From a virus (Duplodnaviria > Heunggongvirae > Uroviricota > Caudoviricetes): DNA of 5,163 nucleotides. Numbering within the stretch: position 1 is the stretch's first letter; each line of letters starts with the position of its first letter. The stretch lies in IMG/VR virus record IMGVR_UViG_2667527792_000002. One strand, written 5' to 3'. The notes under the pieces are model-generated. The model saw nothing but the letters and a program-made list of their open reading frames with translations. It was not told where the DNA came from and searched no databases. This document shows positions 1-5,163 of the stretch, piece by piece. The translations under genes and the position numbers were made by a program.

Positions 1-141
1 GATGATGGCTCTTTCTGGCCTGTACTGGAAGGTATCCCGGCAACAGAGATGTTCAAAGTGATTCCACAGGCACCGGGCCATGCCTACGGGATGTTTATGG
101 AACGTTTTAACGAGTTATCGGAGTTACGCAAATGCGCATGA
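1..141 (+). CDS. 3' end of unknown prophage protein (partial, start lies upstream of window)
   Basis: Open frame 1 from the window edge to TGA at 139-141 (...FMERFNELSELRKCA*). Its stop overlaps the start of the next ORF (ATGCGCATGA), suggesting translational coupling. No family recognised. Confidence 0.4.
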   Translation, partial: DDGSFWPVLEGIPATEMFKVIPQAPGHAYGMFMERFNELSELRKCA

Positions 142-494
142 ATGTTTTCGAAATGGAAGGGTTTCTTCGTGGGAGATGTGTACCGCGAGATCTGAAAGTG
201 AATGAAACAGATGCTGAATACCTGGTGCGTAAATTCGATGCGCTTGAAGCTAAATGTGCAGCACAGGAAAACAAAGTAATACCAGTGTCAACTGAACTGC
301 CACCAGCAAATGAAAGTGTTTTGTTATTCGATGCTAACGGAGAAGGCTGGCTAATTGGCTGGCGTTCTCTCTGGTACACCTGGGGACAAAAAGAAACCGG
401 AGAATGGCAGTGGACATTTCAGGTCGGGAGCCTTGAAAACGTCAATATCACTCACTGGGCAGTAATGCCAAAAGCACCGGAGGCTGGAGCATAA
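132..494 (+). CDS. DUF551-like phage protein (120 aa), function unknown
   Basis: 363-nt ORF, start overlapping upstream stop. C-terminal W-rich region ending in ITHWAVMPKAPE resembles the DUF551 signature (THW.PLP) as I recall it from phage accessory proteins. Not verified by search. Confidence 0.5.
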   Translation: MRMNVFEMEGFLRGRCVPRDLKVNETDAEYLVRKFDALEAKCAAQENKVIPVSTELPPANESVLLFDANGEGWLIGWRSLWYTWGQKETGEWQWTFQVGSLENVNITHWAVMPKAPEAGA

Positions 495-592
495 TGACCA
501 CTTTTACCGACAAAGAACTGATTAAAGAAATTAAAGAGCGTATCAGCAGCCTTGNCNTGNGNNANNATNTTGAAATCTTAAGGGTAAGATAA
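494..592 (+). other. Short coupled ORF (about 32 codons, MTTFTDKELIKEIKERISSL...) interrupted by ambiguous bases; possibly a truncated gene
   Basis: ATG at 494 overlaps the TAA stop of the preceding ORF (TAATG). Frame runs through the N-containing stretch 555-570 and stops at TAA 590-592, so the reading is unreliable. Confidence 0.2.
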
Positions 593-675
593 AAGGTCAT
601 TAGACAGAATGACACGTTTTATTAATAAATAAAGCTATTGTTTCATTCGTGTGTTTTTCTTTACAAAAGTAATCC

Positions 676-704
676 TTGCTATGGTTGGTTAATCATGCGT
701 TAAT
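676..704 (+). promoter_or_regulatory. Putative sigma70 promoter for cspI (-35 TTGCTA 676-681, 17-bp spacer, -10 GTTAAT 699-704) with AT-rich UP-like region upstream
   Basis: Hexamers resemble the cspA promoter (TTGCAT / CTTAAT). A start near 711 would give a ~145-nt leader, the long 5' UTR typical of cspA-family cold-shock genes. Sequence-based prediction only. Confidence 0.3.
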
Positions 705-855
705 GGTGTTCTGGTTTGTTACAAAATTATCTGAAGCAGTCATTGTTATAATTTTATTATTTGTACCTCTTGAGATTTCCTTGTTGGTTTTTCTCTCTGA
801 TATTTTTTTTCGGACCATTCTGCCCAAGGGCTAACTTCTTCAAAAGGTAATAATG

Positions 856-1068
856 ATGTCTAACAAAATGACTGGTTTAGTGAAATGGTTTAACCCTGAA
901 AAAGGTTTTGGTTTCATCACGCCGAAAGATGGTAGCAAAGATGTGTTTGTGCATTTCTCAGCTATTCAGAGCAACGATTTCAAAACGTTAACTGAGAATC
1001 AGGAAGTCGAATTTGGTATTGAGAACGGACCTAAAGGCCCTGCAGCTGTTCATGTAGTGACACTTTGA
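856..1068 (+). CDS. cspI: Cold-shock protein CspI (CspA family, 70 aa)
   Basis: Translation [70 protein letters not shown] has the RNP1/RNP2 cold-shock motifs and the [14 protein letters not shown] signature I recall for CspI of the Qin prophage. AAGG RBS 8 nt upstream. The ORF track starts one codon earlier (853); the second ATG matches the known N-terminus. Confidence 0.9.
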
Positions 1069-1272
1069 GGTAGAAAATATTACAAACCATATTCACTTTA
1101 GATGCCCGTGTTGCCATGGTTCTCAGTATAGAACATCATCTTTTGATGTTTCTGACAGAAATCCTTTCGGGGCAAAATGTATCTTTTGTAAATCAATGAT
1201 GATTACATTTGATAATATTTCACAATACTTAAATGTTAGCCATCTGTCGTTAGATTTAAGAAAGTGAAAATG

Positions 1273-1298
1273 AAGGCTCCTTCGGGAGCTTTTTTGCT
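1273..1298 (+). terminator. Rho-independent terminator candidate (stem GGCTCC / GGAGCT, UUCG loop, then TTTTTTGCTT)
   Basis: Hairpin at 1275-1290 followed by a run of six T. About 200 nt downstream of the cspI stop. The opposite strand also has a U-rich tail, so it may act in both directions. Confidence 0.5.
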
Positions 1299-1339
1299 TA
1301 GTGTCTAGTCGATGGATACTCACATATTACGGTAACATT

Positions 1340-1570
1340 ATGAAAAAAATAATAGTTTTTTTTAACTCTGAACCAGCAATGGTAGTGCCAGTGATGACCG
1401 GAGTTAACACCATCATGCGTGAATATCCAAATGGCGAAACAACACACCTCACTGTAATGGCTGCAGGGTTTCCATCTCTGACCGGAGATCATAAAGTCAT
1501 TTATGTAGCAGCGGATCGACATGTAACTTCAGAAGAAATTCTGGAAGCAGCAATGAGACTCTTGAATTGA
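1340..1570 (+). CDS. Small hypothetical protein (76 aa), possibly YmcE/YnfN-like
   Basis: ORF MKKIIVFFNSEPAMVVPV...EAAMRLLN from ATG 1340 (the track's 1301 start is a GTG inside the terminator tail). Weak RBS. It sits between cspI and a gns gene, as ymcE does in the cspG-ymcE-gnsA locus; the similarity claim is positional and by size, not sequence-verified. Confidence 0.45.
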   Translation: MKKIIVFFNSEPAMVVPVMTGVNTIMREYPNGETTHLTVMAAGFPSLTGDHKVIYVAADRHVTSEEILEAAMRLLN

Positions 1571-1742
1571 TTTGATTCTAATGCATTGATAATAAATGAT
1601 AATCATCTTTATCTGTTTGTGTGAAATTTAGACCGTCGTATGTTGATTATTGCGATGTTTCATCTTATCTTTTATACGTTTGCTCCATATAATTGACACT
1701 ACTGTGTACCAGGACAGTCATAACAGACTAAAAGAGGAAATG

Positions 1743-1916
1743 ATGAACATTGAAGAGTTAAAAACAAAAACAGAAGCAGATATTTCTGAATATATAACAA
1801 AAAAAATCATTGAGCTTAAGAAAAAGACCGGGAAAGAAGTTACCAGTATCCAGTTTACTGCACGGGAAAAAATGACTGGTCTTGAAAGCTATGATATCAA
1901 GATTGATTTAATCTAG
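1743..1916 (+). CDS. gnsB: GnsA/GnsB-family protein (57 aa)
   Basis: MNIEELKTKTEADISEYITKKIIELKKKTGKEVTSIQFTAREKMTGLESYDIKIDLI matches the Gns family (conserved TAREKMTGLESYD). AGAGGA RBS upstream. The track's longer ORF from 1650 is an upstream extension without RBS support. gnsB rather than gnsA is inferred from the prophage context next to cspI. Confidence 0.75.
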   Translation: MNIEELKTKTEADISEYITKKIIELKKKTGKEVTSIQFTAREKMTGLESYDIKIDLI

Positions 1917-1978
1917 CATGTTTATAGTATTAGCATCAATTTCTCATCAGATGCTATTCAACAATACAAATTATCCAT

Positions 1979-2006
1979 AAACCTCGTTTTTACGGGGTTT
2001 TGTTAT
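1979..2006 (+). terminator. Possible intrinsic terminator downstream of gnsB (stem AAACCUCG / CGGGGUUU with one G-U pair, then U-rich tail)
   Basis: Hairpin at 1979-2000 followed by TGTTATATTT. Part of the U-run is used in the stem, so this is weaker than the 1273-1298 candidate. Confidence 0.35.
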
Positions 2007-2211
2007 ATTTAAACATTACCGAATAGATATAAATCTCGATTGTCGATGGTATTGGTTGTGTGACAATACCTAGTCTTTCCGGTATGCCTGAAGAGAATAC
2101 AAACGACAGATTATGTAAGGGAAACGCGCTGAAACTTTCACTCTTTCATGCTGAGTGATTTGACGTTATATTTTTAGCCGCAAGTGAAGAGCAAACGAAT
2201 GGAGCGACAAA

Positions 2212-2418
2212 ATGCATAAAGATCAATACACTGATGCCCCCTCCCAGGAGCAGGTTCGTGTAAAAACTATGCTTAATAGCACCATTTCGATGGGTTACCC
2301 GGATGTTGTAATTGCATGTATAGAACATCAAGTATCTCTGGAAGCATTCAGGGCAATTGAGGCCGCGTTAGTAAAGCACGATAAGAATACGAAGGATTAT
2401 TCCCTGGTGGTTGACTGA
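2212..2418 (+). CDS. Hypothetical small protein (68 aa), prophage moron
   Basis: [43 protein letters not shown]... with GGAG RBS about 7 nt upstream of the ATG. No family recognised. Confidence 0.45.
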
Positions 2419-2781
2419 TCACCATAACTGCTAACCATTCTGACCATTTCACAAGTGACAGAGTCAATATCGTATTCTGTCACTGTAATGCTAATACAGT
2501 ACTGCAATTCAACTACAGCAATGCCTCGTATTTAGGTGAATTTACAATATCGTCCAGTTCGGATGCCGGCTGCATTTCTGAAGATAAGGCATTTCGGTTC
2601 GCGTATTTTCCCCTCATGCTCGTCAGTCCTGCGCGTAGTAAGAAACAGGACACTCACACTAATTTGTGTGAGCATGCTGTGATGTCCTTCTGAATTATCC
2701 CCATGCCATTATGTAACGCTCTGTTTCAGATGCTCGTCACGGTTGTCAGGCTGTCGGGTCCTCCCAGTGGGGGTCCCTGCC

Positions 2782-2801
2782 ACGGGGCGGGAGCGTCGCG
2801 G
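2782..2801. other. cosN-like cohesive-end site of a lambdoid phage (ACG|GGGCGGGAGCGT|CGCGG)
   Basis: GC-rich island in AT-rich DNA. Compared with lambda cosN (ACG GGGCGGCGACCT CGCGGG) it shares the ACG flank, the first six bases of the 12-nt overhang and the CGCGG flank. It lies about 196 bp upstream of the small terminase start; lambda cosN is about 190 bp from Nu1. Confidence 0.5.
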
Positions 2802-2847
2802 AAAAAGACTAGTTTTTGCATTTCCATGGCGGCGGCAGCATGTTTGG

Positions 2848-2860
2848 TAATTTATTGATA
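2848..2860 (-). promoter_or_regulatory. IHF-consensus-like site (WATCAANNNNTTR on the minus strand) within the putative cosB
   Basis: Plus strand TAATTTATTGATA matches the reverse complement of the IHF consensus. Its position between cosN and the direct repeats parallels lambda I1. Such matches are common in AT-rich DNA. Confidence 0.25.
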
Positions 2861-2877
2861 ATTAAAAGTTATTTCTC

Positions 2878-2964
2878 TTTTCACCTGTACAATATTTTTT
2901 TCTCCCTGTCATTAGACCAGTTTGCAATTAATTGAAATATATAAATAAACCTGATTTTCACCTG
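2878..2964 (+). repeat. Two 10-bp direct repeats TTTTCACCTG (2878-2887 and 2955-2964), candidate small-terminase binding elements (cosB R-like)
   Basis: Exact 10-bp repeat 77 bp apart, the second ending just before the small terminase start. Spacing from cosN resembles lambda R2 and R1. A 10-bp perfect palindrome CAATTAATTG (2925-2934) lies between them. Confidence 0.4.
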
Positions 2965-2980
2965 CCAGATGGAGTTGCTT

Positions 2981-3508
2981 ATGTCAAATGTGAGCGGGAT
3001 CGGTGATGCTTATTACTGGAGTGTTTTTAAAATCGCCGAGGCCTTTGGGCTTCACCGGGACACAGTAAAAAAACGGCTCCTCGCGGCCAACACTCCTGTG
3101 GCTGCGACTGTCAGGGGGAACCCCGTTTACGCCCTGCAGCATGTCGGGCCCGCCCTGTTTAGTGTGAAGCATGAGGCAGCAGACTCTGTTCATGATCCAT
3201 CCCGTATGGAGCCGAAAGAGAGAAAGGACTGGTACCAGTCTGAAAATGAAAGGATCAAGCTGGAAAAGGAGCAGCGAAAACTCATCCCAGTTGATGAAGT
3301 AGTCATCGTCTATTCGTCCATGAGAAAGGCTGTCGTCCAGGTTCTGGAGACAATTCCGGATGTTCTTGAACGCGATTGCGCCCTGACTCCTCAGGCCGTC
3401 GGCGTTGTACAGCAGGCCATTGATGACCTGCGATACACTCTTCAGGAAAAATCCTACGAGGCTTGTGCTGCTGAATTAATTCCTGATGAGGAAGGAGAGA
3501 GTCTCTAG
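2981..3508 (+). CDS. Phage terminase small subunit (Nu1-like DNA-packaging protein, NohA-type), 175 aa
   Basis: ORF immediately upstream of a gpA-family large terminase and downstream of a cos-like site. N-terminal HTH-like segment (IAEAFGLHRDTVKKRLL) then a charged coiled-coil-like middle, the same layout as lambda Nu1. Start placed at ATG 2981 (GGAG RBS at 2971-2974) rather than the track's 2969. Confidence 0.65.
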   Translation: MSNVSGIGDAYYWSVFKIAEAFGLHRDTVKKRLLAANTPVAATVRGNPVYALQHVGPALFSVKHEAADSVHDPSRMEPKERKDWYQSENERIKLEKEQRKLIPVDEVVIVYSSMRKAVVQVLETIPDVLERDCALTPQAVGVVQQAIDDLRYTLQEKSYEACAAELIPDEEGESL

Positions 3509-3516
3509 GAGGAATA

Positions 3517-4962
3517 ATGGGTTTTTCATCAGCCCGAAATTTGGGAAGGGACATATCGGCAGGATTTTCCCCACCACGTCGCATGCCGATTTCGGAGGCT
3601 GTTAAAAAATTCATGCGTGTTCCCAAGGGGGCTGGTAACTCGGTGCCATGGGATCCTGAACTGACACCCTACATCATTGAGCCCATGAACTGCCTGGCAT
3701 CGCGTGAATACGATGCGGTGATTTTTGTTGGTCCTGCGCGAACAGGGAAGACCATTGGTCTGATCGATGGATGGATTGTCTATACCATCGTTTGCGATCC
3801 TTCGGACATGCTCGTTGTGCAGATGACCGAAGATAAGGCCCGCGAGCATTCTAAAAAGCGCCTTGACAGAACGTTCAGAAGCAGTGCGGCGGTAAAGAAA
3901 AGAATGAGTCCACGTCGTAACGACAATAATGTCCATGATAAGACGTTCAGGGATGGCTCGTTCCTTAAAATTGGTTGGCCCTCGGTCAATATTATGTCGT
4001 CGTCGGATTACCGGTTTGTCGCCTTAACCGATTACGACCGTTTTCCGGAGAATATCGACAGCGAGGGTGATGGTTTCTCCCTGGCCTCAAAACGTACCAC
4101 CACATTTATGTCCGCCGGGATGACTCTGGTGGAGAGCTCGCCGGGACGTGACATCTGCGACAGCAAATGGCGACGTAAGTCGCCTCATGAAGCGCCACCG
4201 ACGACTGGTATTCTTTCCCTTTACAATCGTGGTGACCGCCGCCGCTGGTACTGGCCATGTCCGCACTGCGGTGAATATTTTCAGCCAGCTATGGATGCCA
4301 TGACCGGCTACCGTAATGAACCGGATCCCTTTAAAGCCAGTGAGGCGGCGTATCTACTTTGCCCGCACTGCAGCGGCATTATCACTGCGGAGAAAAAGCG
4401 TGAGCTCAATAGTGCAGGAGTCTGGTTGCGTGAAGGTCAGGTCATTGATCGTAACGGCAACGTTTCCGGTGAACCGCGCCGCTCCCGTATCGCCAGTTTC
4501 TGGATGGAAGGGCCAGCTGCTGCGTATCAGACCTGGGCGCAACTGGTTTACAAATTACTGACTGCAGAACAGGAGTATGAAGCGACAGGAAGCGAAGAAA
4601 CACTCAGGGCGGTTATCAACACCGACTGGGGATTGCCTTATCTTCCTCGTGCCAGCATGGAGCAACGAAAAAGTGAACTGCTTGAGCAGCGGGCAGAGCC
4701 AGTTCCTTCCCGCAGTGTTCCGGATGGCGTTAATTTCCTTGTGGCGACAGTGGATGTGCAGGCGGGACGTCATCGCCGTTTTGTGGTTCAGGTAACGGGC
4801 TATGGCAGCCGTGGCGAACGCTGGATTATTGATCGTTACAACATCACGCAGTCATTGCGCAGTGACTGCGACGGGGATACACGGGCGGGACCATCGGGAT
4901 GCAGCGTTCCGAGCAGGGTTATATTCCGGTGTCAGGTCATCTACAACGCCAACTGGCGCTGA
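3517..4962 (+). CDS. Phage terminase large subunit, lambda gpA family, C-terminally truncated (likely non-functional)
   Basis: AGGAGG RBS overlapping the upstream stop. Walker A-like VGPARTGKT, and [12 protein letters not shown]...LLCPHCSG resembling the lambda gpA Cys/His motif. About 450 residues of phage homology versus 641 in lambda gpA. After about 4860-4877 the frame reads through host ansA sequence out of frame to TGA at 4960-4962. Confidence 0.8.
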
Positions 4963-5163
4963 TGCCGGAATTCCATCGCCCGGAGATGCCAGATTTCACC
5001 ATTCATGAATATACGCCGTTGATGGATTCTTCTGATATGACGCCGGAAGACTGGCAGCATATTGCTGAAGATATTAAAGCGCACTATGACGACTATGATG
5101 GTTTTGTCATTCTACACGGTACCGACATGATGGCGTATACCGCCTCTGCGCTGTCGTTCATGC
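4899..5163 (+). CDS. ansA: L-asparaginase I (ansA), 5'-truncated; native start codon and first ~9 codons absent; continues past window end
   Basis: Frame-0 translation from 4878, [40 protein letters not shown]...[16 protein letters not shown], is near-identical to E. coli AnsA residues 10 onward as I recall them. Upstream in frame is a TGA at 4863-4865 with no ATG/GTG/TTG before the ATG at 4899 (native Met16). A product starting there would lack the catalytic Thr14 of the TGGT motif. Confidence 0.75.

Follow-up and report, generated by a model that had tools for sequence, protein, structure and literature searches.

Near the right-hand end of the DNA analysed here, a phage terminase gene passes abruptly into the host gene ansA, and the question that this locus raises is whether the transition reflects a rearrangement of an Escherichia coli chromosome or arose when the sequence was produced and assembled. 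The window, by which we mean the whole stretch of 5163 bp, is the entire contig CDRT01000581.1 of the draft assembly GCA_001373215.1, which comprises at least 581 contigs. A first-pass annotation, made from the sequence letters, had proposed a deletion scar and had named an assembly chimera as the fallback. Our results favour the fallback: the junction at 4877/4878 is probably a chimeric join in a short contig of a fragmented draft and not a chromosomal feature.

Composition of the contig

Three blocks, referred to below as a, b and c, make up the window, and they map to three separate, non-adjacent loci with an identity at or near 100% up to the breakpoints. The blocks, the joins and the truncated genes are located as follows.

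1-573, plus strand: block a, from the end of the early region in a thrW-site prophage; it contains the 3' end of yfdR (1-141), a DUF551 gene (132-494) and ~26 codons from the start of yfdT (494-573)
555, 557, 560, 562, 563, 565, 566 and 569, no strand: eight interspersed N, within the last bases of the yfdT fragment (555-569)
570-573, no strand: first anomalous join, at the bases 'ttga' common to yfdT and the rzpQ-cspI intergenic region of a Qin-type prophage
570-4877, plus strand: block b, a segment of a Qin-site lambdoid prophage, identical at 4308 of 4308 bases to ATCC 43896 (NZ_CP024278.1, 1,952,308-1,956,615)
3517-4877, plus strand: gene for a gpA-type terminase large subunit (terL; Pfam), codons 1-453 plus 2 nt; the intact homologue has 699 aa
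4878-5163, plus strand: block c, ansA for cytoplasmic L-asparaginase I (Pfam PF00710), codons 10-104 plus 1 nt, up to the end of the contig

The order of genes in block b is cspI, ynfQ, ynfN, gnsB, a gene for a 68-aa hypothetical protein, a DUF1441 gene in the small-terminase position and the 5' part of terL. The same block is identical in several further strains, including W284.

The terminase gene and its junction with ansA

The window contains 1361 nt of terL, which breaks off at position 4877, on the second base of codon 454 out of 699. According to Pfam, the GpA_ATPase domain (PF05876) is complete (residues 40-303, profile positions 2-247 of 247, E = 2e-81), whereas the GpA_nuclease domain (PF20454) is cut at about 40% of its length (residues 325-448, profile positions 1-117 of 294); of what a functional gpA-type terminase would have, the ATPase domain is thus present, and the complete nuclease domain and the full length of ~640-700 aa are lacking. 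In its first 453 residues the product resembles the large subunits of the gpA family (mEp460, HannyBb and lambda gpA) in having the whole GpA_ATPase domain and the start of GpA_nuclease, and its DNA is 98.7-100% identical to that of phages mEp460 and HannyBb, but about 60% of the nuclease domain is missing from the copy in the window, as is the C-terminal part of the 699-aa homologue. The earlier estimate that the homology stops at about residue 450 of an expected ~640 therefore holds for the point of truncation, now placed at codon 454, and not for the length of the intact protein. At 699 aa, the intact homologue also speaks against a natural full-length terminase of ~450 aa.

When megablast alignments were combined with a reading of the parent sequences beside the window, the homology to terL was found to end exactly at 4877, within the interval of ~4860-4877 given by the first-pass annotation, and the homology to ansA to begin at 4878. 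The junction connects terL nt 1361 to ansA nt 28, which is the first base of codon 10 (tac), in agreement with the proposed start of AnsA at about residue 10 in another frame, and the abrupt, out-of-frame fusion of a truncated TerL to a 5'-truncated ansA was in this way confirmed to the base. Positions 4500-4877 are 100% identical to E. coli prophage terL, and positions 4878-5163 are 99.7% identical to ansA (285 of 286 bases). Around the breakpoint the parent sequences read gacgggga/gagcc in terL and cgtcgcc/tacacggg in ansA, and the window reads gacgggga/tacacggg, with 0 nt of microhomology, 0 unassigned bases and no filler. A search at 4877/4878 for microhomology or a common k-mer gave none, no repeat flanking the junction was found, and there was no IS end, att core or target duplication; terL or ansA accounts for all of the bases on both sides, which upholds the earlier statement that mobile-element sequence is absent from the boundary. 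A direct repeat, ACGGG (4871-4875 and 4880-4884), was considered as the site of joining and was rejected, both copies being still present.

The two reading frames differ at the junction, with codons of ansA starting at positions of remainder 0 modulo 3 (4878) and those of terL at positions of remainder 1. The fused open reading frame encodes 481 aa; base 4878 completes its residue 454, and residues 454-481 are ansA read out of frame (28 nonsense residues), up to a TGA at 4960-4962.

A near-perfect palindrome of 24 nt in terL (4847-4870; CGCAGTCATTGC/GCAGTGACTGCG) ends 7 nt ahead of the junction. Its 12-nt arms are 92% complementary with a spacer of 0, and the predicted DNA hairpin has a free energy of -10 kcal/mol (z = -3.0). 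The palindrome is native, as it is present in the intact terL too, and by a rough estimate a random position in terL would have a chance of ~2% of falling this near to it. In E. coli, palindromes are known to be sites of breakage in vivo, and they may also cause polymerase artefacts in vitro; because both are possible, the palindrome does not discriminate between a real event and an artefact.

The ansA fragment

The ansA part is identical at 285 of its 286 bases to the alleles of ATCC 43896, W284 and E2865. Upstream of the fragment, the ansA frame is closed by a TGA at 4863-4865, and the first in-frame ATG codons are those of M17 (4899) and M38 (4962), both of which lie past the TGGT motif with T14, which we take to be the catalytic nucleophile in this motif of the EcAI structures (PDB 2P2D/2HIM). 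A start codon, a ribosome-binding site and residues 1-9 in an open frame, as a functional AnsA would have, are therefore not found here, and there is no in-frame start upstream of the TGGT motif that the first-pass annotation could have missed. Its statement that ansA has no promoter, RBS or start codon is upheld, and a scan for a fusion-created promoter of the truncated ansA gave none near the join; the only matches, two weak ones of 9/12, lie well within ansA. The stop of the fused reading frame overlaps the ATG of AnsA M38 in the sequence TGATG (4960-4964), and the public annotation calls a second gene at 4962-5162. A product started at M38 would be without T14 and Y24 and should be inactive.

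The sole difference from the ansA of the relatives is a C to T change at 5128, which leaves 35 nt to the end of the contig; by this change the conserved motif HGTDTM of functional AnsA becomes HGTDMM (T93M); apart from this T to M change, the protein fragment is identical to that in PDB entries 2P2D, 2HIM and 6NXC. The change was absent from the 4133 complete E. coli genomes matched, from the JGI metagenome contigs and from the species-representative genomes. An error at the end of the contig is its probable origin, which would fit with support that is thin and prone to errors in that part. However, we give this argument little weight because a similar argument, made for positions 429-430 in block a, proved wrong.

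The first join

Block a presents a second anomaly on the same contig. All non-N bases of 1-573 are identical to those of six natural prophages, in which yfdT is intact and is followed by xis, int, proA, proB and phoE, and positions 1-554 are 99.6% identical to many complete E. coli genomes. The non-N bases of 555-569 follow yfdT, and this stretch reads ACGTGCGAGACGATA in all 120 natural alleles found. Two origins of the eight Ns were considered and rejected. Positions at which yfdT alleles vary, as at a repeat boundary, do not account for them, since 120 of 120 alleles are identical there; nor does a simple consensus of yfdT and the Qin-type sequence, since the two parents differ at 14 of the 15 positions and only 8 are N.

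In natural sequences yfdT runs intact into xis-int; this holds for all 10 of the contexts in which the exact block a allele occurs naturally and for 120 viral contigs. In the window the truncated yfdT is instead fused to an intergenic site, and all of the lambdoid phage genes between the early-left end and the lysis module are omitted. This join was absent from complete E. coli genomes and from the 2.9 million viral contigs of IMG/VR.

Within block a, the DUF551 protein, identified by Pfam, has GA changed to AG at 429-430, which puts an S at a residue that is D in every complete RefSeq E. coli genome and in 114 IMG/VR alleles. These positions were at one point taken as a contig error, and this view was withdrawn, as an exact-protein look-up found the allele in 250 index blocks, which include genomes outside the RefSeq complete E. 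coli set, and as natural prophages match block a.

Arrangement in related genomes

Two complete genomes, ATCC 43896 and W284, have a block b that is 100% identical to that of the window and also the same ansA allele. In ATCC 43896, terL is located at 1,955,255-1,957,354 on the plus strand and ansA at 1,732,091-1,733,107 on the minus strand, ~222 kb apart; in W284, block b is located at 2,367,203-2,371,510 on the plus strand and ansA at 2,150,475-2,151,491 on the minus strand, ~220 kb apart. In both, the prophage occupies the canonical Qin site beside ydfJ, with its late genes directed away from ansA, so that terL and ansA are divergent with 220-223 kb between them. In ATCC 43896, the tail genes of the prophage abut a truncated ydfJ, which is followed by ydfI, dcp and marRAB.

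The flanks of the junction are thus not collinear in either relative, as they would be in the undeleted parent of a deletion scar, and they are head-to-head with respect to the parent, as at the breakpoint of an inversion: in ATCC 43896 coordinates, the window follows the plus strand of the parent to 1,956,615 and continues with the reverse complement of the parent to 1,733,080. With genes that are divergent and on opposite strands, deletion of the intervening DNA cannot give this join. Given the layout of the relatives, the join would be obtainable only by inversion, translocation or artefact.

Occurrence of the joins elsewhere

Among 5,426 complete E. coli genomes, none spans the terL-ansA junction and none has block a or block c beside block b. 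Exact scans for the junction found it absent from the species-representative genomes, the viral contigs and the JGI metagenome contigs, and no phage or plasmid record spanning it, such as a transducing or captured fragment would give, was found. The fused protein of 481 aa occurs in one contig only, CDRT01000581.1, in an index of 153 billion genes that includes the Logan re-assemblies of public runs; as a negative result for Logan this is weak, since the reads of this sample may be missing from Logan, although E. coli phage proteins derived from Logan do appear. When the junction peptide was compared with 5.8 billion protein clusters, only ordinary terminase fragments were matched, and none covers the out-of-frame tail. 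The 90% cluster of the fused terminase (3517-4959) has as its representative a tail fibre protein of 1050 aa and contains 5479 members of mixed identity; this cluster is apparently chained or mis-seeded and is uninformative on the fusion.

Origin of the junction

The segments of the contig are non-adjacent in the relatives and their joins are not reproduced elsewhere, as expected of an assembly chimera. The short contig, the second, N-bearing join at 555-573 and the uniqueness of the joins together make a chimeric origin of 4877/4878 the likely one, so that what the first-pass annotation had held in reserve becomes the favoured explanation. No more than 4.3 kb separates the two anomalous joins, and 8 ambiguous bases stand ahead of one of them. 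If both were real, a 4.3-kb piece of the Qin-site prophage would have to be placed between yfdT and ansA; as these loci differ in region and orientation in the relatives, several independent, homology-free rearrangements with endpoints within 4.3 kb would be needed. Therefore, at least one of the two joins is almost certainly artefactual, and this raises the prior probability that the whole contig is misassembled. Furthermore, illegitimate recombination in E. coli usually uses short homologies, and the 0 nt of microhomology at 4877/4878 fits ligation in vitro better. Some points speak against a chimera: a seamless join free of N normally implies that it was contained in one or more reads or fragments, which a genuine rearrangement would supply too; a private and recent mutation would equally be expected to be missing from other genomes; and the exact pattern of the 8 Ns is not accounted for by it.

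The main rival is a genuine inversion, which we regard as unlikely. It would have inverted ~223.5 kb of the chromosome between terL nt 1361 and ansA nt 27 (1,733,081-1,956,615 in ATCC 43896) by rejoining without homology, with both genes inactivated, and the reciprocal junction, in which sppA and the 5' 27 nt of ansA meet the antisense 3' part of terL, would be found on another contig. The orientation of the join is exactly as such an inversion predicts, the join is seamless as if it were supported by reads, a hairpin-forming palindrome of terL ends 7 nt from the breakpoint, and the event costs no essential gene. Its endpoints, however, are without any homology, a second, unrelated and N-marked anomalous join lies on the same 5-kb contig, the contig stops 286 nt into ansA rather than continuing into pncA, and the join is unique across all of the collections searched. 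The corresponding history, to which we give only a small chance, is that of a natural isolate near ATCC 43896 and W284 in which a break at the palindrome (4847-4870) and end joining in ansA inverted ~223.5 kb within one replichore, with loss of asparaginase I and with the Qin-site prophage locked in the chromosome. Large inversions mediated by prophages, for example those in O157:H7 lineages, are similar in that one endpoint is in a lambdoid prophage, in that hundreds of kb are involved and in their position near the terminus. Inversions of this kind, however, are products of homologous recombination in which long stretches of similar prophage sequence take part, whereas in the present case a housekeeping gene forms one end and no bases are common to the two endpoints.

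Two further explanations would place phage DNA at ansA itself. Composite phage DNA, consisting of blocks a and b or of block b alone, may have been inserted or translocated into codon 9/10 of ansA by illegitimate recombination, with 4877/4878 as its right end. Such an insertion would put both joins on one contig without a large inversion, and ansA is dispensable; nevertheless we consider it very unlikely, as block b is base-for-base the resident Qin-site prophage of close relatives, and a short-read contig would as a rule stop at the edges of a second copy of 4.3 kb and not run through it. The join between blocks a and b, moreover, omits needed phage genes and coincides with uncalled bases, and no such element was found in 2.9 million viral contigs or in phage records. 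The deletion of the first-pass annotation, which would have taken away the distal part of the terminase gene, the genes for head and tail and the 5' end of ansA, is rejected on the geometry of ATCC 43896 and W284. To retain it, a prophage would have to have been located just upstream of ansA and pointing to it, and to have lost its distal terminase, its head and tail genes and attR together with the 5' end of ansA in one deletion. A single deletion is the simplest event that truncates two genes together, and lambdoid prophages occupy many sites, so that a copy near ansA in the source strain is conceivable. Still, both complete genomes with the identical block b and ansA allele have the prophage at ydfJ, 220-223 kb off and divergent; terL is within ~3 kb of ansA in 0 of 5,426 complete genomes; and the left side of the block is abnormal too, with the truncated yfdT fused upstream of cspI, which makes such a scar highly improbable. 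A small remainder of probability was assigned to no named reading.

Under the chimeric reading, the contig would string together a thrW-site prophage end, 4.3 kb of a Qin-site prophage and 286 nt of ansA that are not neighbours in the chromosome. The join between blocks a and b would fall in a stretch that the assembler could not call (8 Ns). Since the join between blocks b and c has neither N nor overlap, some read or fragment probably carried it, and a chimeric library fragment and a mis-resolved assembly graph are the candidates. Elsewhere in its assembly the strain would have both ansA and terL uninterrupted, and neither 'gene fusion' would be functional. The chimeric reading is further favoured by the inverted orientation of the terL-ansA join, across 220-223 kb, relative to two complete genomes with identical alleles, and by the stop of the contig just 286 nt into ansA, a single-copy core gene.

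The contig resembles misassembled contigs of short-read drafts, of the 'relocation' and 'inversion' classes, in that it is short, belongs to a fragmented draft and consists of ~100%-identical segments from distant loci, and also in its sharp breakpoints, the ambiguous bases at one join, the involvement of a prophage repeat family and joins that are not reproduced. The terL-ansA junction differs from these in having no N or common k-mer, which sets it apart from a simple false overlap and from a scaffold gap; for this reason a chimeric template or read must be postulated.

Nothing in the window departs from known biology. As an artefact, the junction is a matter of curation only: the public record contains a 'terminase' of 481 aa whose tail is nonsense, together with an ansA fragment truncated at its 5' end, and such entries give rise to spurious proteins and to pseudogenes called in error. 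A real join would provide one isolate as an example of an E. coli inversion that is associated with a palindrome and independent of homology; its interest would be modest, and it would open no long-standing question.

The Qin-site prophage segment

The prophage of the relatives is at the same site beside ydfJ as Qin of K-12 (cspI-ynfN-gnsB-ydfO-nohQ region) and has the same cspI-ynfQ-ynfN-gnsB module. Qin of K-12 is a genuinely decayed prophage that has lost its packaging and head genes. In contrast, the prophage of the closest relatives is complete, from the terminase through the tail fibres, and the truncation in the window lands in ansA, 220 kb off and on the other strand, unlike a local deletion in the course of decay.

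Some minor features of block b were also noted. The cspA thermoregulator of Rfam (RF01766) matches positions 698-1114 with 107 bits, which covers the leader and the coding region of the prophage cspI (853-1068). Positions 1079-1267 correspond to ynfQ in the annotation of ATCC 43896, a small YmcF-like product rich in cysteine pairs; its annotated start, ATT at 1079, is not ATG, GTG or TTG, and hence the gene is absent from the list of open reading frames. In the gap of 550 nt between the gene for the 68-aa hypothetical protein and the DUF1441 and terminase genes there is a G+C-rich patch (~2740-2830) with A+T-rich flanks, the position of which would suit a predicted cos or packaging site.
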